Origin: Eledone cirrhosa
Lineage: Eukaryota
NCBI GenBank assembly: GCA_964016885.1
Contig: OZ024741.1
Coordinates: 375,906,001 to 375,970,000 of the forward strand
DNA: 64,000 bases
Direction of reading: 5' to 3'
The notes under the pieces are model-generated. The model was not told where the DNA came from. It made no database searches and saw nothing but the letters and a program-made list of their open reading frames with translations. Of this stretch, positions 15,005-63,222 are shown piece after piece. A program made the position numbers and the translations under genes. Each line of letters begins with the position of its first letter. Positions within the stretch are counted from its first letter, which is position 1.

Positions 15005-18000
15005 ATGGCCTCACTCAGAATAGGCAACATAAATACGCGTGGCTTGGGGTCGTCATGGAAGCAGGGCCACCTGCTCAACGACCTCAGGTCACTAAACATA
15101 GATGTAGTGGCCATCAGCGAGACCAGAATCTCCGAAGCACGGGACTTCGCACCGATCTTCGGCGGCTACGATGTGTACGCATCTCCCAGCCGTCCTGGAT
15201 CGGAGGGAGGAGTTGCTGTGCTTTTTCAGAGAGGTTTGGATCTCGCCATACGGATCATCTTCCTGGACCCAGAAGGTAAGTTGGTGGTGCTGGACGTGAC
15301 CAGCGGAGACGGGCAAGCTTTCAGGCTAGTGACCGTCTATGCCCCGACAGGAGCAGGGCGGCTTGATTTCTTCCGGCGTCTGGAGACCTTTCTAGGAACG
15401 TCCCGCACTTTAGTGTTAGTGGGCGACTGGAACGGGATCTTAGGTGCACGCTGGGACTGTGTGGGATTAGCGGATAGAGGAGGAGGGTGCAAGAGTCTCA
15501 CCAACCTGCTCAGGCGTTTTGAACTGTCTGACAGGTACCTATTGGATTTCCCGAATGTGCCAATGTGGACGTGGACAAATCGCTTAGGGTCATCCAGATC
15601 ATATCTAGATAGAGTATTTTGTAGGGAAATAGATAGGTCTAGCATAGGCTGTCCACAATTCAAGATAGTCAGCTACACGGACCACAAATTCGTGATCTGT
15701 GTGCTTGACTTAGATAGGCTTCATAGACGAGGACCCGGCTACTGGAAGCTAAACGCGTCCTTACCAGCGCGCAAGGCCTACAGAGACCGGATTAGCGAAC
15801 TAGTTAAGCGGGTGTTGACGGGGCCATCGTCAACAACAAGTGGTGGTTTGCTCTGAAAAGAGCGATTAGAATAGAGTCAATTAGGTTTAGTAAGGCTTTA
15901 GCAATAGAGAAAAATAGAGCAGAGAGAGAACTAGTTAGAAAATTAGACGAGGCGCTTAGCAAAGGCATCGCGACCGACGTACTTGCGGCGAAATTGGCCC
16001 TTGACCAATTCTTCAATGCAAAGCACGAAGGCTGCGTTGTCAGAGCTAGGGTGCATGCTCTCAACACGAGGGGACTAGAGCCGTTCAATGGGCCCGAGTG
16101 GCGGAGGCGCGTCGTGGCAACAAAGCCACGATCCGGTCTTTGGTGGACCACGACGGGCGCTTGCTACTCGATCCCGGGAAAATGTGTGAAGCTTTTCAGC
16201 GACACCGCACAGCTGTTCGGGGTCAGCGGCGGGCCGGATCGAGGGATGGACTTTAGTGTCTACCTCAACGGACTGCCGCGGCTCTCTGCCACTGAGGCGG
16301 AGTGTTGCGAAAAGCCGATAAAAGCCGCTGAAGTACGGGAGGCAATGACTGGCTGCACAAGGGGTAAATCGCCTGGTTTTGATGGTCTGCCCTATGAACT
16401 TTACGTACAGATGCCAGACTTGTTCGGAGGCCTCTTGGCGAACGTCTACTGCAAATGGCAATAGAACGGGAGAATTCCCAGCTCTGTGATCCGAGGAGCG
16501 GTGGCGCTGCTAAGAAAGGATCCGAACAAGGGGGATAACATAGATAAATTCAGGCCCATAACTCTGCTAAACACAGAGTTCAAGATTTTGGCCAAGGTGC
16601 TAGCAAAGAGGTTGGCGCTTGTCGTTGGTGGTCTGGTGGGAGAGGCACAGAGATGCGCCATTCCCGACAGATCCATCCACGACAACCTCCACCTCATGCG
16701 ATACATCGTAGAGAGGGTAGCTAAGGAACCTGGCACGGGTGGGTCTTTGATCAATTTAGATCAGTCGAAAGCCTTCGATAGGGTCGACCATCGTTACCTA
16801 GCGGCAGTCCTGAGGGCGGCTGGCTTTGGGCCCGTCTTCAGAGGCTGGATCGCTGCCATACACAGCGACATCTGCTCTGTAGTGAGAGTGAACGGTCACC
16901 TTTCGGAACCGTTCAACATCATGCGCTCGGTCCGCCAAGGATGTCCCCTCTCGTCCCTATTGTACGTATTGACTCTCGAGCCATTACTGCACAAACTGGA
17001 GACGTTGAGGGGGGTCCCGCGCGAACTAGGATGCGGAAGATCCGTGTCAGCATATGCGGACGATGTCACCGTAGTGGTGTCGAACGCCAAACACATCGAG
17101 GCGATCGGCACTACACTAAGAGAATACGAAGTGGTGACAGGAGCAATGATCAACCAGGAAATGTCAGTGGGCCTGCAGCTCGGCACCTGGAGAGGCAGGT
17201 CCATGCCGTTCAACAGCGTCGTCAGGCGCTGGACGGACGGACCGGTTAAATTGCTAGGGGTCTGATTCGGTCCAGACCTCCAGACGGACAAAAACTGGGA
17301 CGAGGTGACGAGCTGGGTGGCTTCTCTCACCCAGAAATGGGCCGAGAGGAAGCTATCCCTGAAAGGTCGAGCGGAGGTGGCTAACGCGTACATCGCGTCC
17401 GTCATCTACTACCGCCTGACCGTCGTACCTTGTCCTAAGCCCCGCCTGACTGCGCTGGAGCGTTTGCTCTTTCGCTTCTTGTGGAAGGGACGCGCTCCGA
17501 TGGTCAGGCGGTCCATCTGCTGTCAACACCCGCTACGTGGAGGGCTGGGCATGCCGTGGCTGATGATGCGCAGACACGCGCTCAGGCTACGACATCTCCA
17601 CCTCTTCCTCGACGGTGATCAGGTGTGGTCGCCGTTTGCTAGACACGTTTTTCCCCAGCTCGTCTCCTTGACGGAGCTGCAGTCCTGGGTCAAGCGAAGA
17701 CTGAGAGGGAGCGCTTGGAAACTGGAATATCTTCAGGCGCTCACAGCCCTCGGCCAATCGGGCAATGTGATCGGTGGAATCTCCACCTTGGCGTTCTATA
17801 GGGGATTAGTGGAGGGGAAGAGCGACGACATACTTGGAGAAACGCTAGGCGTCGACGAAAATCAACTAGCCAATCTCTTCAGAAGGACTTTCGGGCTGAG
17901 GCCTATGGACAACTTCCAGAAATCCCTGGCCTGGCAGTGCTACCGGGGAGCTTTGCCAGTTCGGGATAAACTCTACAGGCATGGAGGTGCCGTCAGCCAG

Positions 18001-21026: not shown

Positions 21027-23616
21027 CCTTGAATCTCAGTCATTGATGTTGGTTAATTGGAAAGTCCGTTGGATTGAATATCAAGCCACTACCTGCAGCC
21101 TCAGATATTCAGGACGTATCGGAGGGTTCTCGCTGTTCCAAGCAAGCATGCCTTTTGAAGCGTTCCAAAAAGCGTGAAGGGGCCGATTTTCTTTAACCAT
21201 CCCTGGAAACTTTTGGAGATAGTCCCCAGTGCGCCTATGACAATCGGGATCACTTTGACTTCATGGCAGTTCCAAATCCTTTTCACCTCCCACTTTAGGT
21301 CCTGGTATCGGTTAATTTTCTCCCTCTCCTTCTCTTGCACTCTCGTGTCGAACGGGCAGGCCACATCCACAATCAGACACGATCTTTTTTCTTTGTCCAC
21401 AACCACCAGGTCAGGTCTATTGTGTTCCAGTTTTTTGTCCGTCTGTATCCTAAAATCCCACAGCACCTTCACCTGATTGTTCTCCATCACCGCCTCCGGC
21501 CTATGCTCATACCATTTCTCAGAATGTGGTAAATTGTTTACTTTGCACAGGTGCCAGTGGATCACCCTGCCCATCACATCGTGTCTCCAGCCCTTATAGT
21601 GGGTCTGGGCTAGGTGTTTACACTCGGACACAATGTGAGCCACAGTCTCCTCTCTCTCTCCACAGATCCTGCACAGTGGGCTAGCCTCCTCCTTGTAAAT
21701 ATGGTGCTTCAACCACTTCGTTTTGAGGGCCTGCTCCTGCGCAGCCATTATCATTCCTTCTGTAGCCTTTTTGAGGTCTCCTCTTCTCAACCAGTTCCAT
21801 GTCTGTGGATCTCTAAATTCAGTTTTCTCAAAGAAGGTACTATGAAGGGATTTTCCCTTAAGGCTGCTCTTCCTCCTTGATGTTATTTCCTCCTTGGACA
21901 TCCCCTGGCCTACTGTCCCCTCCTTCAGTACAGTTTTGAGCATTGGCTCCTTACTATAGGTCACGTATTTGTATAGGTTGTTTTTCTCCATCCGAACACA
22001 GTCCTCTATGCTGATAAGACCTCTTCCACCCTCAGACCTCCTTAGGTAGAGTCTATCGACATCACTCCTCTTGTGGAACTTGTTGTAGATAGTCAATAGC
22101 TTCCTAGTCTTCCTATCCATTTCTTTTTGTTCAGCAACATTCCATCTCAGAATTCCCGCACTGTACCTAATAATAGACACAGCTCGGGAATTTACTGCGC
22201 TTATGGCATTTCTGCTGTTCAGATGTGACTTCAATACGCTCCTTACTCTCCGAATGTATTCAGTTCTTAACAATTCCTTCATTTTTTTGTTCTTTATGCC
22301 ATCAGCCTCCAGAAAGCCCAAATACTTGTATCCTTCCTCAGAGTCAATTTCCTTTATCATCTCACCTGTTGGTATCTGGATCCCGCTACTTCTGCTCAAC
22401 CTACCCCTCCTCATCACAATGACTCCACATTTACCAATACCAAACTGCATACATATATCACTGCTGAAAATACGGACAGTGTCAACAAGCACATCCAACT
22501 CCTTCTCACTTTTCCCGAAGAGCTTAAGATCGTCCATGAAGAGGAGGTGATTGATGGTAAGCTCTCCCTTTCCCAACTTGTATCCTGCTCTCACTTTTCG
22601 CAGCATAATGGTCAAGGGCATTAGGGCAAGGACAAACAACAGAGGGGACAGGCTATCTCCCTGGAAGATACCTCTCTTGATCTTCACGCTTCCAAGGATA
22701 CTCCAGTTGATGTCAACTCTGTCTCCCAGGATCCCATACTCCTGCCCAGCAACTGTCTGATGTTATCTGCCACCCTGAAGATCTCCAGGCTTTTGGTGAT
22801 CCAAGAATGAGGCACCATGTCAAATGCCTTTCTGTAGTCTATCCATCCCATGTCAAGATCAGTGTGTCTCCTCCTGCAATTCCCCATTACCATCTTATCA
22901 ATAAGTAACTGGTCCTTTGTACCACGTGACTTCTTTCGGCATCCTTTCTGTTCGTCCGGTAACATGTTGTTTGTGTGGAGGTGATGGTAGATTTCCTCAG
23001 ACACAATGCTCGTCAACAGTTTCCACATTACGGACAGACATGTGATAGGTCTATAGTTGGTAACATCATTACCCTTGATTCGGTCTTTCATTATCAGAAC
23101 TGTGGTACCTTTTGTCAACCACTCTGGCACCTCACCCGACACCAAGCAGTCATTGAACATGGCCGTCAGCTTCGGGTGGAGGGATGTTAAATGTTTAATC
23201 CAATACCCCTGCACACCATCTGGGCCTGGTGATTTCCAGTTGGTTAGTTTTTTGGCCTGCCCCTTAAGAGTTTCAACTGTGATACTCAAATCAGTTTGTT
23301 GTTGTGCCTGCTCACCGATCTCCCTCTGTACTGTCTCAATCCACCCTGCCTGGGCATTATGTCTGACATCCTGCTCCCATATTCCTCTCCAGAATGTTTT
23401 AGTTTGTTCCGCCCCAGGGATCAAGTCGTTGCCTCTTTCTTTCCCCTCAAGCTGTCCAAACAGCATCTTCTGGTTGTTGTCGAACATGCGGTTCTGTTTA
23501 TACTGACTGACTCTGTTCTCGTATCGCCTGATTTTTGCACTCTTTGCTACAATGCGTTGCTTCAATTCCTCTATGATAATATTTAGCTTTTTACTCCTAG
23601 TTTTGTATTTTATTTC

Positions 23617-29079: not shown

Positions 29080-29242
29080 ATATTTAGAAACACACAGATA
29101 CATGCGGACACACACATATATACATGAATGCATCCGCACCCAACTGTGAGTTAAGGGTGCCAACTTCACCGATGTTGCTCAATGAATGACTGGGACAGAC
29201 CAATTCAGTTGAACTAGACTGAACCAGTATCAGAGTTAAAAA

Positions 29243-29789
29243 TACATTATGAAGAGAGAAGAAACATTTAGATATAATTAGTAATAAAATGTATCATACC
29301 TAAACTGCTCCTAAATTCCTCGACTACGTAGTTTCGTGGCATAAACAAAAACAATATATCATAAAGATATAGAGTCCTTGCGAGGTCTGCCGACTTATCA
29401 AGAGGATACCTCATTTTACTAGCTTCAAGAACGCGTCCACACGACGTGAGAAAGAATCCCAAAAGGCGGAGGGGGAGATAGTCACGCGATATAACGGTCG
29501 AGAAACAGAGCTAAGCCTCTTATAACCCCGAAGAAAATACCACGGAGGCGGAGGGGGTATTTATATCGAGGCCGTAGAAGAGGTGGTGAAGAAGGCGAGA
29601 AGTATGATTAATGGAAGCTTTCCAGCTGTATCCTCTTGATAAGTCGGCAGACCTCGCAAGGACTCTATATCTTTATGATATATTGTTTTTGTTTATGCCA
29701 CGAAACTACGTAGTCGAGGAATTTAGGAGCAGTTTAGGTATGATACATTTTATTACTAATTATATCTAAATGTTTCTTCTCTCTTCATA

Positions 29790-29794
<5 letters not shown>
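29243..29794. repeat. Inverted repeat: 167-bp arms (29243-29409, 29628-29794), each with a hammerhead
   Basis: Arms read as reverse complements. Confidence 0.92.
29631..29720 (+). ncRNA. Type I hammerhead ribozyme, U3-A8 core variant (mirror copy 29317-29406 on -)
   Basis: TCCTC-TTGATAA-GTCGGCA..TGCCAC-GAA-ACTACGTAGT-C-GAGGA. Confidence 0.8.
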
Positions 29795-29858
<64 letters not shown>

Positions 29859-30817: not shown

Positions 30818-30862
<45 letters not shown>

Positions 30863-30864
<2 letters not shown>

Positions 30865-32160
30865 TTTTGTATTTGTTTTGGAAGATTTCTTATCTGAAAA
30901 CGTGTGTTGAAACAGGTATTGTTATACTTTGAGATAGTCATGCTGCTAATAAAATCACGCGCCTGTTAGTTTTCACTTCAACTTATTATAAACACCTAGT
31001 TTGATAACCGGATAGTTGTTTATTTGTTTATTGTCAAAGCTCTTTTGTCACACATTCTGTGACCGCCACAGTGACTAATTTGTTTTTGTGTCTCCTTTGT
31101 TCTGTTTTACACAATCTTGTTTTTGTGAGCTGTGAGGTGTGTGCTGTTTATTTGGGCTACACATACGTTATATCCATGTGTGTGTGTGTGTGGGTGGGTG
31201 GGGGGTTATTTATTTATTTACATATTTATTTACTTGTCACTAATTTATTTTTTGTTCTACCTGTGTGTGTATCTGGTTTGTTTTGTTACTTTGGTTCTTG
31301 TGTGTCTCTGTAGTCTTGATCTTGTCATTAGTTACTAGTTTTGATGTTGTTGCTATTTCACTCATGTTTTCTGTTTAGTTTTGGTTGGAGTTCATTTATA
31401 TTTGTCGCTTCTGTCATCTATCAGAGCATTGCGTTCGTTCTGTATGGGGATATGATTTTCATCTCTATGTTCTCTTATGTGCCCAAATGATCCATTCTAG
31501 CATGTTGGTGGAGTACTGATGAGATTTTCCCATCTTGGAGTTCTCAACAGTGTTCATTTATTCTTTCTTTTATGCTACTGGCCTCTCACCTATCTAAGTT
31601 GTGTTACTATTCCTACACTGTCCCTCCGTACATCTTATACTATATACTACTTTCCTAGTTTTGCAGTTAATTTGAGGGCTTAATTTGTAGACTATACTTT
31701 TTCTATCAGTACATGGGTTTTCTCAAAAGGTTATTTTCTACTAATTAGGTCTTTTATGAGAATACCTGGTTTTTGCTACTATGTTAATATATAATTTTAA
31801 TTTGTCTAGAGCCCTTCTAAATGTATAAGCTAGTTCGCCTCTGGGGGTTGCATTGACGAATATCACACTCTAGTATTTGTTGCTGTCTTACAAAGAGTTG
31901 ATTTTAGTCTTCTACTTAGTTCTCTCTATCCTATTCCGACATTTTCTCCTATACATGGGGCAAGTACCATTCGCATAATTTTCTACAATCTTCATCCATT
32001 TGACCCTGGCTCCTGTATACACCCTAATCCTGTCTCTCTGATTGTAGCCAAGGAAATGCATGCGGTGGATGAAGTGTTGTATATGTCTCTCTAATTCTTT
32101 AGGATTGCACATGCGGGACACATTCTTCATCACTCTTATAAAGTCCGGAGTTGCCAAAAT
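30863..32160 (-). mobile_element. Old degenerate Penelope-like element (same lineage as 59921-61610)
   Basis: RVMKNVSRMCNPKELERHIQHF; same 3' UTR with decayed hammerhead at ~31030-31075. Confidence 0.85.
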
Positions 32161-32364: not shown

Positions 32365-32760
32365 CAAATAGTTTTTGGAATATTGATAATAATATTCGAT
32401 TCGTTTGCAATTATGCAGATAGCCCACTTCAGCCATGTCAGTAGAACGATCCAGTCATTCTTCCTCTTGTGTTTGCATGCAAACAGAACGGCAGACACTG
32501 ATGCTTCTGGGTGATTGCCCTTCATCAGTACAGTATACTGCTTACCTGCCACTGTCAGAGCCAGTGAAAATATATGATATTTTCTAAAATATACAGTGAC
32601 TGATCGACCTGATTTGCATATTAGCAGACTGCCTGATCAGTCAAATCTGTATAATAGCAGACCCACGGATCAGCCAGATGTGCATGCCAACACAAGAGCA
32701 AGAATGACGAATCGAATATTATTATTAATATTTGAAAAGCTCAGATTACATTTATTGTAT
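32365..32760 (-). mobile_element. Non-coding hammerhead family E copy with inverted terminal piece
   Basis: Homologous to 62220-62830; mutated hammerhead 32489-32533; octamer 32612-32619. Confidence 0.75.
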
Positions 32761-32828: not shown

Positions 32829-32870
<42 letters not shown>

Positions 32871-32873
<3 letters not shown>

Positions 32874-33057
32874 AACAAGTAAGACCCCGACGGCTGAGCT
32901 CAAGCCGTTTCGACGGCTAATTCTGAATTAGCCGTCGAAACGGCTTGAGCTCAGCCGTCGGGGTCTTACTTGTTCCTATTACCCACTGTACTACCCTAAG
33001 TATTGAGTACTTTGGTGCGTTATGGTCCACCTGGTTCCTTACCACATTTCCTTCGCT
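32871..33057 (+). mobile_element. Fold-back insertion in (TA)n containing the 3' half of a hammerhead
   Basis: Palindrome 32871-32977 centred at 32924; GAA-ACGGCTTGAGCTCAGCCGT-C-GGGGTC. Confidence 0.8.
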
Positions 33058-35273: not shown

Positions 35274-35505
35274 AATATTAAAAATAGAAATATTAAAACA
35301 ATGAAATTAAACACAAAGCTGTTAATTCATAGTAAAACTCATTATTTTACGATCGTTTCTGACTCTGTATCCAATTGAATTATAGCGTTGAAAATTTTGT
35401 ATTTTAAACTTTGCTTCACTACATCTTCTACATACGGATTACATTGAGTTCTTCATACGGTTTAGATCCTACCATTGATTGTTAGATTTATCTGTATATA
35501 TATAA

Positions 35506-37527
35506 CGTTTCTGAATTTGTTTAGTAAGATTCTTTATCTGAATACGTGTGTTGACACCGATATTGTTATACTTTGGGAGGGTCATGTTGCCAATAAGAAA
35601 CACCCGCATCAGTTGCTTTCACTTCAATTTATTATAATAAATTTATAAATTTAGGAATTTATAAATTTCCGGTTGGTTGGTTGGTTCCACAACCAGATGT
35701 TTGTTTATATATTGTCAAAGTTCTTTCGTCAAACATTCTGTGACCTCTTCAGTGACTGGGGATTCTTTTCTTTGCTTTTGTGCCTCTCCTTTGTTCTGTC
35801 GTACGCCATCTTGTTTTTGTGTGTGTGTTGTGTGCTTAGTTTGCGCATGTGTTACATCCGGGTGTCTGTGTGTGTTTATATTCATTTATTTATTTGTTTA
35901 TTTACATGTTACTGATTGGTTGTTTGTTCTATGTGCGTGTGTGTTTTCATTTTGTCCTTAATTGTAAGTTGTGATGTTGCTGTTCCACTCATGTTTTCTA
36001 TTTAATTTTGGTTGGAGTTGATTTATGTTTATTGCCTCTGTGATTTGTCTAAACATTGCGTCTTTTCTGTGTGTAGATTCTATTTTTATTTCTATGTTCT
36101 CTAATTTACCCTTATGTTCTATTTTAGCATGTTGGTAGAGTACACATGATTCTTTCCTATCTTGAAGGTCTCGCCAGTGTTCATTTATCCGTTCTCCTAT
36201 ACTACGAGCTGTCTCACCTATGTACACTATATTTTTATCTCTACATTGTCCTTCCGTACATCTTATGCTATATACTACATTTCTAGTTTTACAGTTAATA
36301 TGGGGGCTTAATTTACAGATTATACATTTCTTATCTATACAGGGAGGTCTTTGAAAAGGGTATGTATTGCTAATAAGTGTTTTTATAGAGGTACCTGGTC
36401 TTTCTACTATCTTAATATTGACTTTATCTTTATCTAGGGCCCTTCTAAATTTGTAAGCTAATTCACCTCTAGGGGTTGTATCGATGAACATTACACTCTG
36501 GTATTTATTGCTATCATACCATGAGTTTATTCTATTAGCCTTATTCCTAGTTCTTTCTATTCTATTCCAAAATTTGCTCCTATACAAGGGGCAGGTCCGA
36601 TATGTGTTATTATTTACCATTTTTTCCCATTTGGTTTTGGCTCCTCTATATACTCTGATTTTATCTCTCTGATTGTAACCAGAGAACTGCATACGGTGGA
36701 TGAAGTGTTGTATGTGTCTCTCTAGTTCTTCGGGGTTGCACATGCGGGACACGTTTCTCATCACCCGTACCAAATCCGCAATCAGTAGGTTGATTTTGGT
36801 ATGGTCCGAAACAGCTGAGTTTCGGTGGATCAGATATTTGGAAGTCATGGGTTTGGCATAATGGGAATGGAAGATTTGTTTTTTTGTTATTAATGGTATC
36901 TAACCAGAGCTCTGTGTCTAGTACAGGTAATCGATGGTTGGGGTGTTTGCTTGGGTAGTCTATAGTAACTCTAATACTCTGATGGATGGAGTTAGCTATT
37001 TGCTGGATGCTTTCCATTGTTTTTCTCTAATTCCTGACTGTTCTCTAGTAGGGGTGTTTTAACTACGATGTTTATATCATCACCGTAGCGGGAGTACATT
37101 ATCAGGGTTAAGGGGTCTTCTAATTTATTCTTTAAGTTTCAGTTTAAGTCTACTGTCCCACCATACCATGAATAGGTTAGCTATGTCGCCTGCAATGCTA
37201 ACACCAATGGCTGCTCCCTCCTCTTGGGCATATGTTTTTCCATTACATTTGAACATATGTTCTTTAAGGGTTAATTTTGTGCTGGCCCCCACCGCATGTG
37301 CAATCATTTTCTTTAGTTCATCGTGGTTTTCGGGGGTCCGTATGGCTCTGGTCCACCCGTTCCATCTATCTGTGTGGGTTTTCTTGGCCATTGAGGTAAT
37401 GGTAGGTGGTCTGCCTCTTGCTGGTCTTGCAGGGCACAGGTTGCTAAGGCCATATGTATCTAGATAATTATTACTATAGGTAAGTTTAAGTAGGAGTCCC
37501 AGCTCACTGGTATCAATCCCACGAAAT
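35506..37527 (-). mobile_element. Penelope-like element (Neptune/Nematis-like), left arm of a 4-kb palindrome
   Basis: RT (GAAIGVSIAGDIANLFM, RYGDD, LPVLD) and GIY-YIG (NVVYSIRC..VYIGETARS..RINEH); hammerhead 35713-35757. Confidence 0.92.
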
Positions 37528-40113
<2,586 letters not shown>

Positions 40114-42715: not shown

Positions 42716-44093
42716 CTAGCTGGCCCGTCCGGCTAGCGCCCGGCTACCATTGACGTGTTCTGCTGCTTAAACCATTTTGTTTGTTTACCCTAGCGTCCCC
42801 TTTATTTACGTGTCCCAACGACTTTTTTTTTAGTCGTTGCTCGCACCAACCTGAGGTATATGGCCTTTAATGCGACGAAATGCCTACGACGGTTGGATGG
42901 CCACTGATGAGGACAAACTTTTTCATATGTAACCAATTTGCAGCGCCGCAGCTCCATTATTATCATATTTATCCATATATATATATATATATATATATAT
43001 AGTTGACGTACCTCTAACTTCGCTTGGATAAACAGACGATAAGCCGTTACTGTTGAACATATATAGTATTGTATTACTGTTGAAAATATATAGTATAGTA
43101 TTAGTGTTGAAAATATATAGTACAGTATTACTGTTGAAAATATATAGTATAGTATTACTGTTGAAAACATATAGTATAGTATTACTGTTGAAAATATATG
43201 GTGTAGTATTACTGTTGAAAATATGTAGTATAGTATTACTGCTGAAAATATATCGTACAGTAGTATTGTTGAAAATATATAGTACAGTACAGTAATACTG
43301 TTGAAAATAGTATAGTATTACTGTTGAAAACATATAGTGTAGTATAGTATCACTGTTGAAAATATATAGTATAGTATTAATGCTGAAAATATATAGTACA
43401 GTACATTATTACTGTTGAAAATATATAGTGTAGTATAGTATGACTGTTGAAAATATATAGTACAGTATTACTGTTGAAAATATGTAGTATAGTACAGTAT
43501 TACTATTGAAAATATATAGTATAGTATAGTATTACCGTTGAAAATATATAGTATAGTATTACTGTTGAAAATATATAGTATAGTATTACTGCTGAACATA
43601 TATAGTATAGTATTACTGTTGAAAATATATAGCACAGTATTACTGTTGAAAATATATAGTATAGTATAGCATTACTGTTGAAAATATATAGTATAGTATT
43701 ACTGTTGAAAATATATAGTACAGTATTACTTTTGAAAATATGTACACGAATATATAATTATATATATAATTAATTAAAAGTTGGTTAGAAGCGAAGTCAA
43801 TGCAGACAGGCAGCCAGACAGAGATATTTTAAGGGCGCGACGTTATAACTATGTATCTATGTAAAAAGACAGAGTAAGAGAGAGGAATGTCGTATTATAT
43901 ATATTATATATAATAAAGTGCCAGCAATGTACTGGGATAATTGCTAGCCTTGTGCCATAAGTAGAAACAATTATACTTCTTTTTATACAACTGTAAATAA
44001 CATGTTTATGTATGTATATATACGTTTATATACGTATATAGGAATGGTGTAATTAAATGTACAAATTAAAGTGTCTCTTATTTATGATACCAA

Positions 44094-44769: not shown

Positions 44770-46985
44770 TGTAAAAGGTAAATAGAAATAACAACACAAT
44801 CGGTACAGTATATGGAAGGGATATATTAGGTTAACGCTTGATATAGCAGGAAGAGCGGATTAACGTTTCGGACGCTAGTCGTTCATCAGAAGAAAGAATG
44901 AGAAATAAGATAGATTGAGGAGACGGGCGGGTTAGAATTGGAAAAAATGTCTTTAGCTAAAAATAACAGGTCCATTCATGTTGACATCTCTTGCAAAACT
45001 GTTGGTGCTGGCGTTTTGTGTATGATTTATTTTTTAGAACAGTGAATGATGGAGCGCGTCTATCTGAAATGGAGAAAAAAAAATCGTTTTATAAAAAGAG
45101 CTATACTTGTGCACGTGCGAAAGCATATATGTGTGTGTATGTGTGTGTGTTATTATACGTCCATACGAAACTAAGAGGAAATGTGTGTGTATATGTAAGT
45201 AAAAGAGTGTGTGTGCATATAAGTACGAAGCTATGAGCAAAAGTATGTTAATATAAGGGTGTGTATGTGTGTATACAGAGCAGTGAAGGGAAAAGTGGAG
45301 TGAGCATATTTAGTCGGTCTGTATTAGTTGTAAGAGAAAATGTTAATGATCAAGAGAGAGCGATAGGAATCTAGGGGTGAATGTACAAGCGTATGTGATA
45401 ATGGACGGGGTATTAAAGAAATTGGGGAAGTGAGTTGAGTCCAAGAGGCGAATAGGACCTAAGGCGGTGAATCAGACTTTGTTCAGTCCTGGTGCACGAG
45501 GCCTGTGATCCATGATGTAAAAGAACACCAGGACTGAAACATGTAGGGAAGAGTCACCAGGAGAACAGAAATGACGGGCGACAGGAGTATCCAAACCGAA
45601 TCGTATGTCCCTCAAATGCTCAGCTAAACGGTCTGCCAACCGGCGTCCCGTTTGTCCGATGTATAAAGACCCGCAAAGGGAACACCGGAGGGCATAAAGA
45701 ACGTGGATGGATGTGCAGGTGAAAGAGTGGTGGATACGGAAACACCCGTTAGGGTATGTAAGAATGGTGAGGGTGGAAATGAAGGGACAAGTGTTGCAGC
45801 GGGAACGAGAACAAGGATGAGAGCCGGGTGGAGTCTTGGGAGAGGACGAGAAGGAACTGCGAACCAGGAGGTCGCGGAGGTTGCGTGCGCGCTTAAAAGC
45901 AGTAATGGGTGGGTATGGAAAAAAGCGAGAAGTGACGGGGTCAGAAGAGAGGATGCGGAAGGAACGGAGAATATGTCGCCGGAGTGGTACGGTGATGGGG
46001 TGGTAGGTGAGAGGGAAAGGAAGGTGGGTGTTGGGAGGGCATTGGTGACGTGGAATGGCTGTGGTGCGGTCTGTTTTACGGGCGCGGGTGAGAGCTACTT
46101 GGATCAGGGTGGGGGATATCCAAGCTGGATGAAGCAGCAAGCCATGTGAAGCGAATGGGTTTCGAAATCGTCGTCCTAGCTACAGAGCCGACGAAGACGG
46201 AGGAAGTGGGAATAGGGTATTGAGTGTTTGGTGTGGGTTGGGTGGGAGGAGGTGAAGTCGAGGTAAGATTGGGAGTCTGTTGGTTTAATGAAGATGGAAG
46301 TAGAGAGGATGTGATGAGAGTGATTAATAGATAGAGAGATATCTAGAAAAGCGGCAGAAGAATCGGAGACGGAGGCGGTGAAAGTGAGAGCAGGATGGAA
46401 AGATTGGACAAAAGAAAGCAGTCGAGCTGTTCTCGTGATAGAGAGGTGGCGCCGATACAGTCGTCGATATAACGACCGTATAGCTCAGGAGTCAGTCCAG
46501 CGTACTGGGAGAAGATCTAGGCTTCGACGTAGCCAACAAACAAGTTGGCATAGTTTGGATCCATTCTGGTTCCCATCGTTACCCCAGAGACCTGGTGATA
46601 GAATTCGCCGGAAAAGGAAAAGCCATTGAGCGTGAGAACAAGTTCAGCCAGACGGAGAAGAGTGATAGTGCTGGAGTAAGGGGTAGGGCGTAAATCTAAA
46701 AAATGCTGGAGAGCGCGGAGGCCGTCATCGTGAGGGATGATGGTATAGAGAGAGGTGATGTCCAGGATAAAGAGAAGGCGAGAGGGACCGGGAGGGAAGA
46801 AGAAGGAGTTGAAGAATCTAAGGGCATGATTGGTATCATGGATGTGGGAGGGGAGATTGAGGACCAACAGGGCGAGGATAGTGTCTAAATATTCAGAAAT
46901 TATCTCGGTGGGGAAGTTGCACACAGAAACGATAGGACGGCGGGGATTATTTTGTTTGTGTATTTTGGAAAGGAGGTAGATGGTA
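44770..46985 (-). mobile_element. Penelope-like element (Neptune-like), 5'-truncated, with 3' UTR/pLTR
   Basis: SKIHK..RPIVS, DITSLYT, GVTMGT..YANLF, YIDD; C..C..C linker; LYALRC..LYIGQTGRRL..R..EH. Confidence 0.9.
44861..44895 (-). ncRNA. Minimal hammerhead core in the PLE pLTR
   Basis: CTGATGA-ACGACTAGCGTCC-GAAACGTT; stem I weak. Confidence 0.6.
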
Positions 46986-47273
46986 TATACATATACACAT
47001 ACATATACGCACATACACATGCACATACATACAAACATATAGAAAGAGGGAAGATAAGGACACACCATAACTACATACATATATAAAAATATACTTAAGA
47101 ATTGTAGTAGCTTATATTATCATAGGGCGCAAAATACAAAAAAAAAAAACCTTAATATGTTTGTATGTAGGCACAAGTATAACAATACGAAAATAAAAAA
47201 TGTAGAAAATGGCGCAAAATATATGATAAAACCCTATATATGTGAATGTGTACACACGAACATGGGGTACGGA

Positions 47274-50996: not shown

Positions 50997-51370
50997 CCTG
51001 AACATGGAACCTCGTTCTTCCCCCAACTCTCACATTCACATACACACACACACGTACACCTACACACATGAACAAACACCACCTTCAGCCCTCTCCGCTC
51101 GGACGCCCACCTCCCCCTCTTATTTTTATTTCTATTTTTATTTGCACTTTTAAAAAAGTTTCTTTACATGTCTTTCCACCACTCCCCCACACACCCTCGG
51201 AACTCTCTTCCTAGCCACTGTTCTCCTGATGAAGGATTATGCCCGAAACGTCGTCACCCACCCCAACTCTCAAGCGTGAAACTAAAAACCATATCATTTG
51301 TACTGCCTCTCTGTTTTTTGTTCTCTACAGCGGTCTCTGTCCATGATGATTGTACCATATAAAGACATGC
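50995..51370 (+). mobile_element. Solo PLE pLTR-like piece with hammerhead core (51226-51252)
   Basis: CTGATGA-AGGATTATGCCC-GAAACGTC; (TA)n flanks. Confidence 0.6.
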
Positions 51371-51557: not shown

Positions 51558-51563
<6 letters not shown>

Positions 51564-52180
51564 ATTTAGTATATCTACTAACATATGCGTACAGATGTAC
51601 GCTAATGCCAGCAAATACACAGGTTATGTCATAGTACCTAGGTGGTTCAATGCAGGAGGATGCAGAACAATAATATAAAAGACGTAAAATAAGAAAATTT
51701 AAAAAAAAATTTAAAAAATTAACTTACTAAAATTTTCACTCCAACTAATTAGTTTCTGCAATGGGATAAAGACAGTTACGTAATAAACTGTTGAGAATTC
51801 ATTGCGTCGTCAGGGAGGTCTATTCTCAGCTAAGTCTCCAGGCAATGCGCGGACACTGGGGACTCATATAAAAATAATAATAATTCGGTAAATGGAACAG
51901 CTAGCGGGGACTGGATTCCATGCACTGAAAATCTCGCTGTCACTGGTCAAATGGCAGATTCTAAAGAATCAATCACGTGACACTGAGGCTAGTCGGTAGG
52001 AGTGGGATGGTAAGATGACAGAAGCCTACTAACACACCAAAAAATTAGTAGTGGTTTTGGCAGGTTTGCTCGACAAATAAGTGATTTGGACATAAATATA
52101 GAGAATTTAGTATATCTACTAACATAAGCGTACAGATGTACGCTAATGCCAGCAAATACACAGGTTATGTCATAGTACCT
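51558..52180 (-). mobile_element. Non-coding ~540-bp unit plus ~80-bp direct terminal repeat, carrying a hammerhead
   Basis: AGAGAATTTAGTATATCTAC..GTCATAGTACCT occurs at ~51558 and ~52100. Confidence 0.8.
51739..51817 (-). ncRNA. Type I hammerhead ribozyme
   Basis: CTCC-CTGACGA-CGCAATG..CATTGCA-GAA-ACTAATTAGT-T-GGAG. Confidence 0.75.
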
Positions 52181-52207
52181 ATATATATATATATTTATAT
52201 ATATATA

Positions 52208-53770
52208 GAATAGAATGAAACGAAATTTCATTTCTCACTCTTAGGACGGCACTTACTTAAATGCAAGTATGTATGTATGTATGTATGTATGTATGTATGT
52301 ATGTATGTATGTATGTATGTATGTATGTATGTATGTATGTATGTATGTATGTATGTATGTATACGTACATACATATATGTATACAGACGTACAGTAGTAT
52401 GTATATATATACACACATGCACACATATATATATGCAGGTATCGGTTTACCGAACATTTATTATAATGCTCGGTTTGTTTGTAAACAAACAAACAGCCCG
52501 AATTACGCTGTACAGTGTTTAGGCAACCACGTCATCTTTTTGTTCAACACTGACACAGGAACAATGTACTTGTTTCAAGCTTATTAGCTATCGTCAGCAT
52601 CGTATACCTTCCTGCCAGATGGTTGAACGCCTGGAAGTATATACTTTCCTTATGCATATTAACGGCTGAGCAGCCTAATTTGCATATCGAGTGAGTTCAG
52701 TAGGCCGGGCACACCGAAAACGATAAATGGAATAGAATGAAGCGAAATTTCATTTCTCACTCTTAGTACGGCACTTACTTAAATGTAAGTATGTATGTAT
52801 GTATACGTACATACATATATGTATACAGACGTACAGTAGTATGTATATATATACACACATGCACACATATATATATGCAGGTATCGGTTTACCGAACATT
52901 TATTATAATGCTCGGTTTGTTTGTTTATAAACAAACAAGCAGCCCGAATTACGCCATACAGTGTTTAGGCAACCACGTCACCTTTTTGTTCAACACTGAC
53001 ACAGGAACGATGTACTAGTTTCAAGCTTATTAGCTATCGTCAGCATCGTATACCGTCCTGCCAGATGGTTGAACGTCTGAAAGTATATACTTTCCTTATG
53101 CATATTAACGGCTGAGCAGCCTAATTTGCATATCGAGTGAGTTCAGTAGGTCGGGCAGTAGTGTATACAGACGTACAGTAGTATGTTTACAATCAAACAA
53201 ACTGAGCATTATAATAAATGTTCGGTAAATCGATACCTGCATATATATATGTGTGCATGTGTGCATATATATATACATACTACTGTACGTCTGTATACAT
53301 ATATGTATGTACGTATACATACATACATACTTACATTTAAGTAAGTGCCGTACTAAGAGTGAGAAATGAAATTTCGTTTCATTCTATTCCATTTATCGTT
53401 TTCGGTGTGCCCGGCCGACTAAACTCACTCGATATGCAAATTAGGCTGCTTAGCCGTTAATATGCATAAGGAAAGTATATACTTTCAGACGTTCAACCAT
53501 CTGGCAGGAAGGTATACGATGCTGACGATAGCTAATAAGCTTGAAACAAGTACATTGTTCCTGTGTCAGTGTTGAACAAAAAGGTGACGTGGTTGCCTAA
53601 ACACTGTACGGCGTAATTCGGGCTGTTTGTTTGTTTACAAACAAACCGAGCATTATAATAAATGTTCCGTAAACGGATACGTGCATATATATATATATGT
53701 GCATGTATGTATATATATACATACTACTGTACGTCTGTATACATATATGTATGTACGTATACATACATAA
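52208..53770. mobile_element. Retrozyme-like tandem repeat, family F: two units on -, then ~1.3 inverted units on +
   Basis: Units start at 52208 and 52730; inversion at ~53160-53185; hammerheads at 52561-52603(-), 53007-53049(-) and 53516-53558(+). Confidence 0.85.
53007..53049 (-). ncRNA. Minimal type I hammerhead with palindromic stem III
   Basis: ACGATG-CTGACGA-TAGCTAATAAGCTT-GAA-ACTAGT-A-CATCGT. Confidence 0.85.
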
Positions 53771-54079
53771 ATATATATATATATACATATATAATGTTGA
53801 ATCTATAATTTTAGATGTCTCACACAGAAGCTGTCATTAGAAAAAGCAACACAAAACAAAACAAACCACTAAAAAGTAAACCAAACAAGAAACTGTTTTC
53901 TATAAGTACAGTAGTACCGTTGTTTATTAGATTTTTGAGTGGTGTTTTTTTATGTGACAACGTTGTACAATCTATGAAGATATGAGGCAAGGAAATATAA
54001 TGTCAGCAAAAGTGTTAAAAATATTCAAGAAAAAGAAAATGATGTAAAATAAAACAGTAAAGTAAGAGAGAGAGAGAGA

Positions 54080-59821: not shown

Positions 59822-59920
<99 letters not shown>

Positions 59921-61610
59921 CGTTTCTGAATTTGTTTAGCAAGATTCTTTATCTGAAATCGTGTGTTGAAACCGATATTGTTATACTTTGGGAGGGTCAT
60001 GTTGCCAATAAGAAACACACGCACCAGTTGCTTTCACTTCAATTTATTATATATTTATAAATTTATAAATTTACAAATCTACAAACTTATAAATTTCTGG
60101 TTGGTTGGTTGGTTCCACAACCAGATAGTTGTTTATATATAGTCATAGTCCTTTCGTCACACACTCTGTGACCTCTTCAGTGACTGGGGATTCTTTTCTT
60201 TGTTTCTGTGCCTTTCCTTTCTTCTGTCCTACGCCATTTTGTTTCTGTGTGTGTGTTGTGTGCTCAGTTTGCGCATGCGCCACATCCGGGTGTCTGTGTG
60301 TGTTTGTGTTCATTTATCTATTTGTTTATTTATTTATTTATTTATTGTTGGTTGGTTGTTTGTTCTATGTGTGTGTGTGTTTTCATTTTGTCCTTACTTG
60401 TAAGTTGTGATGTTGCTGTTCCACTCATATTTTCTATTTAATTTTGGTTGTAATTCTTTTATGCTTACTGCCTCTGTAATTTGCCTAAACATTGCATCTT
60501 TTCTGTGTGTGGATTCTATTTTTATTTCTATGTTCTCTAATTTACCCCTGTGCTCTATCTTAGCATGTTGGTAGAGCACAGATGATTCTTTATTATCTTG
60601 AAGGTCTCGCCAGTGTTCATTTATTCGTTCCCCTATACTACGAGCTGTCTCACCTATGTACACTATATTTTTGTTTCTACATTGTCCTTCAGTACATCTT
60701 ATGCTATACACTACATTTCTAGTTTTACAGTTAATATGGGGGCTTATTTTACAGGTTATACATTTCTTATCTATACATGAGGGTCTTTGGAACGGGTATG
60801 TCTTGCTAATAAGTGTTTTTACGGAGGTACCTGGTCTTTCTACTATCTTAATATTGAGTTTATGTTTATTTAGGGCCCTTCTAAATTTGTAGGCTAGTTC
60901 GCCTCTAGGGGTTGTATTGATGAACATTACACTCTGGTATTTATTGCTATCATACCATGAGTTTATTCTATTGGCCTTGTTCCTAGTTCTTTCTATTCTA
61001 TTCCAAAATTTGCTCCTATACAAGGGGCAGGTCCCATTTATGTCATTATTTACCATTTTTTCCCATTTGGTTCTGGCTCCTCTATACACTCTGATTCTAT
61101 CTCTCTGATTGTAGCCAGAGAACTGCATACGGTGGATGAAGTGTTGTATGTGTCTCTCTAGTTCTTCGGGGTTGCACATGCGGGACACATTTCTCATCAC
61201 CCGTACCAAATCCGCAATCAGTATGTTGATTTTGGTATGGTCCGAAATGGCCGAGTTTCGGTGGATCAGATGTTTGGAAGTCATGGGTTTGGCATAATGG
61301 GAATGGAGGATTTGTTTTTGGTTGTTAATGGTATCTAACCAGAGCTCTGTGTCTAGTACAGGTAATCGATGGTTGGGGTGTCTACTTGGGTAGTCTATAG
61401 TAACTCTAATGCTCTGGTGGATGGAGTTTGCTATTTGCTGGATGCTTTCCATTGTGTTTTTCTCTAGTTCCTGACTGTTCTTTAGTGGGGGTGTCTTAAC
61501 TACGATGTTTATATCATCTACGTAGCGGGAGTACATTATCAGGGTTAAGCTGTCTTCTAATTGTTCTTTAAGTTTTTGTTTAAGTCTACTGTCCCACCAT
61601 ACCATGAATA
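59921..61610 (-). mobile_element. 5'-truncated Penelope-like element with uninterrupted ORF, in (TA)n
   Basis: ORF 60394-61605 (403 aa): YSRYVDD, LPVLD, GIY-YIG. Confidence 0.93.
60141..60185 (-). ncRNA. Minimal type I hammerhead in the PLE 3' UTR
   Basis: AGTCA-CTGAAGA-GGTCACAGAGTGTGTGAC-GAAAGGACTA-TGACT. Confidence 0.78.
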
Positions 61611-61633
61611 TATATATATATATATATATATAT

Positions 61634-61852
61634 AGGAACGAGTAGGACCCCGACGGCTGAGCTCAAGCCGTTTCGACGGCTAATTCTGGACTAAAAAAAA
61701 AATTTTTTTTTTTTAGTCCAGAATTAGCCGTCGAAACGGCTTGAGCTCAGCCGTCGGGGTCCTACTCGTTCCTATTACCCACTCTACTACCCTAAGTATT
61801 GAGTACTTTGGTGCGTTATGGTCCACCTGGTTCCTTACCACATTTCCTTCGT
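61634..61852 (+). mobile_element. Fold-back insertion, same family as 32871-33057
   Basis: Palindrome 61634-61773 centred on an A-run/T-run. Confidence 0.85.
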
Positions 61853-62190: not shown

Positions 62191-62219
62191 AAGAAAATTT
62201 CGCTCTACATGGCTGAATA

Positions 62220-62830
62220 CAATAAACGTAATCTGAGTTTTTCGAATATTAATAATAACATTCGATTCGTTTGCAATTATGCAAACAAGCCTCAATTTTA
62301 TAGCCATGTCAGTAGAATGAACACTTCATTCTTGCCCTTGTGTTGGTATGCGAACAGAACTGCAGACACCAATGTTTCTGGGTATCACCCTTCATCAGTA
62401 CAGATCACTGGTCACCAGCCAAACTTTTTATTTGGATTTGGCAAAGCCTGCCATTTATCACTCGTATACAGGAAACTGACTGGGCAGTCTGCTGATATGC
62501 AAATCTGGCTGATCAGGGGATCTCCTAATATGCAGATCTGACTGATTAGCCAGTCTGCTAATATGCAAATCAGGTCGATCAGTCACTGTGTATTTTTGAA
62601 AATTGCGTATATTTTCACTAGCTCTGACAGTTTGGCAGGTAAACAGTGAGCTGTACTGATGAAGGGTGATACCCAGAAACATTAGTATCTGCAGTTCTAT
62701 TCGCATGCCAACATAAGAGCAAGAATGAAGTGTTCATTCTACTGACATGGCTATAAAATTGAGGCTTGTTTGTATAATTGCAAACGAATCGATTGTTATT
62801 ACTATTCGAAAAACTCAGATTACGTTTATT
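62220..62830. mobile_element. Non-coding family E, head-to-head, hammerheads at 62360-62403(-) and 62651-62694(+)
   Basis: CTGTA-CTGATGA-AGGGTGATACCCA-GAA-ACATTGGTGT-C-TGCAG; octamers at 62497-62504 and 62563-62570. Confidence 0.82.
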
Positions 62831-62845
62831 ATATATATATATATA

Positions 62846-63222
62846 TAAGTATGTATACGTACATACATATATGTATACAGACGTACAGTAGTATGTATAT
62901 ATATATACATACATGCACACATATATATATGTACATATGGATTCACCGAACATTTATTATAATGCTCGGTGTGTTTGTAAACAAACATCCCAAATTAAGC
63001 CGTACAGTGTCTCGCAACCATCGTTGCTCATTTGTTCAACACTGACAAAGGAACGCTGTACTAGTTTCAAGCTTATTAGCTATCGTCAGCAACATATACC
63101 TTCCTGCCAGATGATTGAACGTCTGAAAGTATATACTTTCCTTATGCATATTAACGGCTGAGCAGCCTAATTTGTATATCGAGTGAGTTAATCGGCCGGG
63201 CGCACCGTAAACGATAAACGAT
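62846..63222 (-). mobile_element. Dispersed monomer of family F with hammerhead at ~63053-63096
   Basis: Homologous to 52785-53157. Confidence 0.85.

Follow-up and report, generated by a model that had tools for sequence, protein, structure and literature searches.

A 446-nt hammerhead repeat family of Eledone cirrhosa and its probable insertion by the machinery of Penelope-like elements

The non-LTR retrozymes of animals are described as non-coding tandem repeats with units of a few hundred nucleotides and one type I hammerhead in each unit (Cervera and de la Pena 2020, PMC7229834), as in the repeat family reported here. Mobilisation of animal retrozymes by Penelope-like elements (PLEs) was a hypothesis in 2020 (PMC7229834), and a 2026 preprint supports it by co-occurrence and by pLTR similarity (bioRxiv 10.64898/2026.07.22.740005). 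Partial tandems, a 5′-truncated copy in inverted orientation and a one-end tail are reported for PLE insertions (PMC8557442). In vitro, a PLE protein is reported to cleave both strands of AT-rich DNA and to use two internal initiation sites on its RNA (PMC11167929). We analysed a hammerhead repeat locus of E. cirrhosa in a 64,000-nt stretch of contig OZ024741.1 (hereafter the window), together with its relatives in the genome. The 446-nt family was, with a probability of about 85%, inserted by a PLE reverse transcriptase/GIY-YIG protein.

Layout and hammerheads of the window locus

The element at 52208-53770 sits between two (TA)n target tracts, one on the left flank (52180..52207) and one on the right (53771..53793). 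It is built of a minus-strand arm of ~2.1 units (52208..53157), a 23-nt filler at the junction (53158..53180, minus strand, a copy of unit positions ~314-338) and a plus-strand inverted arm of ~1.3 units (53181..53770), with the two arms head-to-head. The long arm has its 3′ end at site A (52208) and is 5′-truncated at 53157; the inverted arm is 5′-truncated at unit position 222 and has its 3′ end at site B. The segment from site B to site A (unit positions ~378-435) forms a tail on the long arm (52208..52258, minus strand) that is missing from the inverted arm. The complete unit at 52712..53157 on the minus strand, which serves as reference, is 96% identical to 52341-52711 over 375 nt, and a repeat finder reported a spacing of 446 nt (family D19) for this array, which is short and comprises only about 2.1 units. 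A (GTAT)24 expansion was observed within the terminal unit at 52267..52362 and likely postdates the insertion. A dispersed single-arm copy (62842..63218, minus strand, 88% identity) terminates at site B, within (TA)n. The element at 52208-53770 is a passenger, decayed by 2-3%.

The unit contains ATGCAAAT at 53124..53131 on the minus strand, an octamer-like motif which we take to be a possible promoter element; newt satellite 2 may offer a promoter parallel. The motif also occurs in a sister family described below. An 82-nt direct duplication (51559-51640 and 52100-52181, 98.8% identity) brackets ~460 nt and abuts the left TA tract of the element.

The type I core, CTGACGA-TAGCTAATAAGCTT-GAAA, starts at 53043, 52597 and 63089 on the minus strand and at 53522 on the plus strand. 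The initial annotation of this DNA had described equivalent hammerheads at 52561 and 53007, 446 nt apart on one strand, with a third on the inverted arm, a dispersed copy at 62.8-63.2k and no credible ORF, and this description was borne out. Positions 52561 and 53007 correspond to the lower-numbered ends of stem I in the hammerheads with cores at 52597 and 53043; the core at 53522 is the one on the inverted arm, and that at 63089 belongs to the dispersed copy. The stem I noted for the 53007 copy, ACGATG (53007-53012) with CATCGT (53044-53049), is present. Twenty ATG ORFs of at least 30 aa overlap the element, with lengths of 37-108 aa; they are mostly microsatellite read-through and none is credible.

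In the hammerhead, the 6-bp stem I continues beyond a bulge, stem II is AGCU/AGCU with a U-U mismatch at its base and helix III is GAAAC-UA-GUA, with a loop of only 2 nt. The copy at 52996..53064 (core 53043, minus strand) has the extended stem I, the U-U mismatch and a palindromic helix III (CTAG). Cleavage is predicted after GUA, between 53013 and 53012 and between 52567 and 52566. These sites are 446 nt apart on the minus strand and would release a 446-nt monomer (predicted at 52567..53012, minus strand), a candidate circle. In the hammerheads at 52550..52618 (core 52597, minus strand) and 53501..53569 (core 53522, plus strand, cleavage predicted between 53552 and 53553), the palindromic CTAG is replaced by CAAG and stem I contains a G-U pair. 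Self-pairing of the palindromic 10-mer was computed at −6.8 kcal/mol and that of the CAAG variant at −0.1, so the locus's own CTAG/CAAG hammerhead pair is probably impaired.

No match at gathering score was obtained from Rfam for the window hammerheads, and the 71-nt motifs fold little better than shuffles (z −0.85 to −1.7); identity of the motif therefore rests on its core, conservation and covariation. Among 175 long copies, three subfamilies of 91, 56 and 14 copies were distinguished, differing at 4-10% of columns. None of the 24 columns of stem II and helix III differs among them, versus 14 of 54 columns just downstream, a comparison partly biased because 65 loci were chosen by the core motif. 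In 66 segments chosen by a motif 3′ of the ribozyme, mismatches were fewer in the core (10/683) than elsewhere (355/9688; p 0.001). At stem I positions 112/148, 120 copies have A-U and 66 have U-G, which reads as one compensatory change. Helix III is ACTAGTA in 193 copies, versus 15 copies among the next five variants. From the conserved columns, the few core mismatches and the stem I compensation, source copies appear to have needed the motif. Cleavage of a hammerhead of the window type cannot be assumed, since eight of nine Xenopus dimers are reported to have failed to cleave (bioRxiv 10.64898/2026.07.22.740005). A further hammerhead-like core (CTGATGA..GAAA) was seen at 51228-51260 of the window.

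Family abundance, insertion ends and candidate enzyme

The search covered the genome of 3.0 Gb in 1796 contigs. A 26-nt core gave 11,409 exact matches and its reversed control gave none; the matches are not chance. By hand count, 24 of the 100 core matches listed fall in 10 same-strand runs with a spacing of 420-453 nt. The unit has a GC content of 38%. No LTR pair around a body was found on the mapped loci, and no ORF with RT plus GIY-YIG was found in the window element or, at 94 loci, directly upstream of the unit. The element is a tandem repeat without coding capacity, its type I hammerhead is conserved and a 446-nt RNA is its predicted product. By sequence-level criteria it classes as a retrozyme of the non-LTR type, in agreement with the initial annotation, which had likened it to non-LTR retrozymes and predicted release of a unit-length RNA. 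No account of the 446-nt family or of the end rule given below was found in the main texts of the largely open-access literature covered.

A 21-kb satellite-like array of ~48 units with higher-order repeats was found at G000:C1:70055695-70077137 (L167-L169). Its hammerhead cores are mostly mutated and its inverted arm ends at site B. The array shows a retrozyme insertion turned satellite by later DNA-level amplification. As a source locus it was rejected because most of its cores are mutated.

Insertion ends were mapped at 141 independent loci, namely 29 best DNA hits, 65 from the core-pattern places listed and 47 from a downstream pattern, with duplicate places and the long array excluded; these are top hits and the places that come first on contig C1, and do not sample the family at random. 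Site A (unit positions 420-437) is the 3′ end of 104 of the 241 complete arms and site B (360-385, ~57 nt from A) that of 102; the other 35 end elsewhere. At 178 of these 206 ends the sequence continues into (TA)n, and in such tracts a target-site duplication is unreadable. The 5′ ends of arms are scattered and the 3′ ends fall at two fixed sites. Circularly permuted insertion ends, proposed in the initial annotation for a genome-wide check, are excluded: the 3′ ends of 206/241 arms lie at two sites and only the 5′ ends vary. Head-to-head pairs comprised 48 AB, 5 BB and no AA (p 3.5e-10 versus 50:50), and 16 more pairs have a non-standard end. The window locus was scored among the BB pairs but is truly AB, its microsatellite expansion having split the match. 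We refer to this pattern as the one-A-one-B rule.

Two fixed 3′ ends, 5′ truncation, a partial tandem, an inverted arm and a (TA)n target are features of a non-autonomous PLE, and the unit has all of them. As judged from the sequence, its insertion anatomy is that described for PLEs, and it agrees with the two-strand cleavage and paired internal initiation reported for a PLE protein in vitro (PMC11167929). The inverted arm, which the initial annotation had treated as incidental, is the signature of a PLE insertion.

In the mechanism that we propose, the PLE protein would cut both strands of a (TA)n tract. Each DNA end would then pair with UA-rich microhomology in the RNA and prime cDNA, one end at A and the other at B. 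The cDNAs would extend back over one to three units, and joining of the two truncated cDNAs head-to-head would yield the lopsided palindrome. The template would span the cleavage site, either as a ribozyme-cut, religated circle or as an uncleaved multimer.

Family a, a young autonomous PLE family, is represented in the window by a 5′-truncated minus-strand copy at 59899..61610, which has RT and GIY-YIG motifs and a hammerhead of its own. Family a has ORFs of 1226-1261 aa, copies 98-100% identical in the endonuclease region, a CX4CXXC linker like that of Neptune/Nematis and two 3′ ends ~60 nt apart in (TA)n. All nine head-to-head pairs scored by script were AB; by eye, L136 is also AB and L109+L110 is AA. 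Pfam named no domain in the PLE fragments or in the full 1239-aa family-a ORF, so the assignment of family a to the PLEs rests on motifs and anatomy. The unit was compared by BLAST with 36 family-a loci, which returned only neighbouring copies and short matches, and no autonomous element of shared sequence. The tails of the unit and of family a have no common fold. Homology between the unit and the family-a pLTR was not detectable there or within the window, and family a therefore remains a candidate supplier of the enzyme, not a proven partner.

At L012/L258, a family-a copy ending at its own site A abuts site A of the unit without a TA tract, and the other outer end is site B of the unit. 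The arrangement looks like one chimeric insertion. It could also be nesting, in which family a inserted into the flanking TA tract and the tract was lost; in this single case, the evidence for a template switch rather than nesting amounts to 1-2 extra bases. At L176:104-1600, an a-like PLE arm stands head-to-head with a unit arm with few TA bases between them, a possible second chimera; it was not counted as one, as a short TA remnant is kept.

Family a and older relatives, with 38,681 first-look candidates, also lie at 35483-39610 and ~30860-32145 of the window, besides the copy at 59899-61610; the 35.5-39.6 kb copy is a 4-kb palindrome with two arms. At 45472-47116, an older PLE (family b) is represented by fragments in which RT and GIY-YIG motifs are present. 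Family b was dropped as partner of the young subfamily because of its age (~80% aa identity among copies).

A sister non-coding hammerhead family (family c, ~440-nt unit) is present at 62217..62834 as an inverted pair with two fixed 3′ ends ~35 nt apart. It occurs again at ~32370-32750, has 2830 first-look candidates and contains repeated ATGCAAAT-like motifs. Family c and the 446-nt unit have short motifs in common (~70% over 54 nt). Its 11 pairs comprise 6 AB, 1 AA and 4 other. Short near-perfect palindromes between TA tracts, at 61632-61775, 32869-32979, 29242-29795 and 39610-39996, probably stem from other PLE-type families, as insertions with two very short arms. The window also contains broken LINE fragments at ~4000-24300, with RVT_1 matches (16465-17265 and 21101-22762) and related ORF pieces, and a 27-nt minisatellite of ~25 copies at 43047-43741.

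Template of the insertions

Of 81 copies, 79 cross the cleavage site and only two stop at unit positions 141-151, so cleaved linear monomers were not the usual template. A circle and an uncleaved linear multimer are sub-cases of insertion by a PLE protein, and we rate them about equal.

The first sub-case, a rolling circle, falls a little short of an even chance. A dimeric hammerhead would cut the multimer, a host ligase would close the 446-nt monomer, and the PLE enzyme would initiate internally at A and B and travel round the circle. Such a template would account for a ribozyme that is under constraint, yet leaves few stops at its cleavage site, and it is consistent with the 114 of 241 arms that cross the unit boundary. 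Divergence among the units of one insertion is star-like (106 singleton changes, 6 in two units and 4 in all three, in 15 triples), which equally fits a homogeneous uncleaved multimer. For the circularised monomer, a fold of −133 kcal/mol is predicted that leaves the hammerhead stems free, at z −6 versus 60 shuffles, a score probably inflated by AT-rich palindromes. Circles are reported for the retrozymes of coral, mussel and axolotl (PMC7229834). Several observations speak against the circle. The arms are short (median 400 nt), with three or more segments in 13/241. The two terminal units of the window share two changes missing from the middle unit, which can be explained by palindrome homogenisation. 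The 48-unit array and its inverted arm share the core mutation C3A, present in 14/18 monomer types, and both are mosaic. PLE insertion in vitro is reported to proceed without need of ribozyme cleavage (PMC11167929). The fixed 3′ ends do not refute a circle, since the PLE reverse transcriptase is described as initiating internally (PMC11167929).

The second sub-case has a comparable, not quite even, likelihood. A small number of homogeneous source loci would be transcribed into an uncleaved read-through multimer, the kind of template assumed for the partial tandems of ordinary PLEs, and the hammerhead would serve 3′ processing or protein binding, or would be a side product. PAc is reported to use unprocessed RNA, and its hammerhead to need protein (PMC11167929). 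With a 2-nt loop on helix III and a dimer needed, cleavage may be slow. The C3A array suggests copying of an uncleavable RNA; the change would be inactivating, and the array leans to an uncleaved template for that case only. A mild enrichment of 5′ ends was noted post hoc at unit positions −10 to 29 (16 ends; 13-15% per 20 nt versus 0-12% elsewhere); it may reflect a start site or, alternatively, a GC hairpin. Core conservation among the source lineages and the near-absence of cDNA stops are hard to explain by a linear template. Religation is the simplest way to reconcile a conserved ribozyme with the scarcity of stops where it would cut, although the PLE hammerhead is dispensable in vitro.

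A shared-variant test that had seemed to favour the linear template was set aside, as sharing tracks the loop size of the palindrome and the distance from its centre. Changes shared between opposite arms numbered 34/317, versus 11/357 within arms, and sharing between opposite arms falls with loop size (16/82, 9/88, 6/124) and with distance. It therefore points to palindrome homogenisation and gives no support to the linear template. L061 was left out of this test because two of its units are duplicated.

A more specific model can be put forward only tentatively. The 446-nt ribozyme circle would be the true template, and a Penelope dimer would prime from both ends of the TA tract, once at A and once at B. 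If this is true, the one-A-one-B rule, observed in the 446-nt family, in family c and in family a, would be a genomic readout of the unresolved integration mechanism of PLEs, and would account at once for the tails, the inverted arms and the partial tandems.

A reading of the units as solo pseudo-LTRs left by an autonomous PLE, or as a DNA-level satellite, with the hammerhead as a relic, is improbable. Hammerheads that stand singly or on opposite strands, 100-700 bp apart, are reported as traces of truncated PLEs (PMC4209133), but upstream of the unit in mapped loci lies another unit, not an ORF, and the unit's hammerhead, with its extended stem I, is unlike that of family a. DNA-level amplification with higher-order repeats did occur at G000:C1:70.06-70.08 Mb, but the copies are scattered, each between TA flanks of its own and with ends of the retrotransposon type, and for these dispersed copies the remnant or satellite reading is largely refuted.

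Comparison with known systems

The class of the element and the qualitative anatomy of PLEs are already known, and the value of the present family lies in its clear integration scars. The family carries scars of the PLE type directly, beside a young intact PLE of matching anatomy, so that a small RNA and a candidate enzyme are at hand for reconstitution. As quantified here, the one-A-one-B rule provides a testable model of why PLE insertions have a one-end tail and an inverted arm.

The unit resembles animal retrozymes in its GC content of 38%, short palindromic helix III, thousands of copies and co-existence with PLEs. It resembles axolotl HHR_Amex2 in the U-U mismatch at the base of stem II (PMC7229834); the Amex2 ribozyme is reported to cleave better as a dimer (PMC7229834). 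Retrozyme circles are given as 170-400 nt (PMC7229834), whereas the unit here has 446 nt. Cleavage and circles were shown for those retrozymes, whereas the 446-nt unit is known from its sequence. The main text of that article makes no mention of inverted, truncated or microsatellite features, whereas the unit has A/B ends, inverted arms and TA targeting.

For vertebrate retrozymes, Li, Clavereau and Pollet (2026, bioRxiv 10.64898/2026.07.22.740005) conclude dependence on PLEs, the same conclusion as here. Vertebrate retrozymes and the present family both occur mostly as monomers or short multimers with occasional long arrays, and the window locus has the two hammerheads in tandem by which these authors define such elements. 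Their evidence is co-occurrence and pLTR homology; ours is insertion anatomy, and pLTR homology was not found here. The main text of the preprint makes no mention of a tail.

The EN+ PLEs, Poseidon PAc (PMC11167929) and Neptune/Naiad (PMC8557442), are described with the same partial tandems, inverted 5′-truncated copy and one-end tail as the unit. They share with it AT-rich or (TA)n targets and a hammerhead upstream of the initiation sites. The unit differs from them in having no ORF and in its tail of ~57 nt, versus 30-40 nt in the EN+ PLEs.
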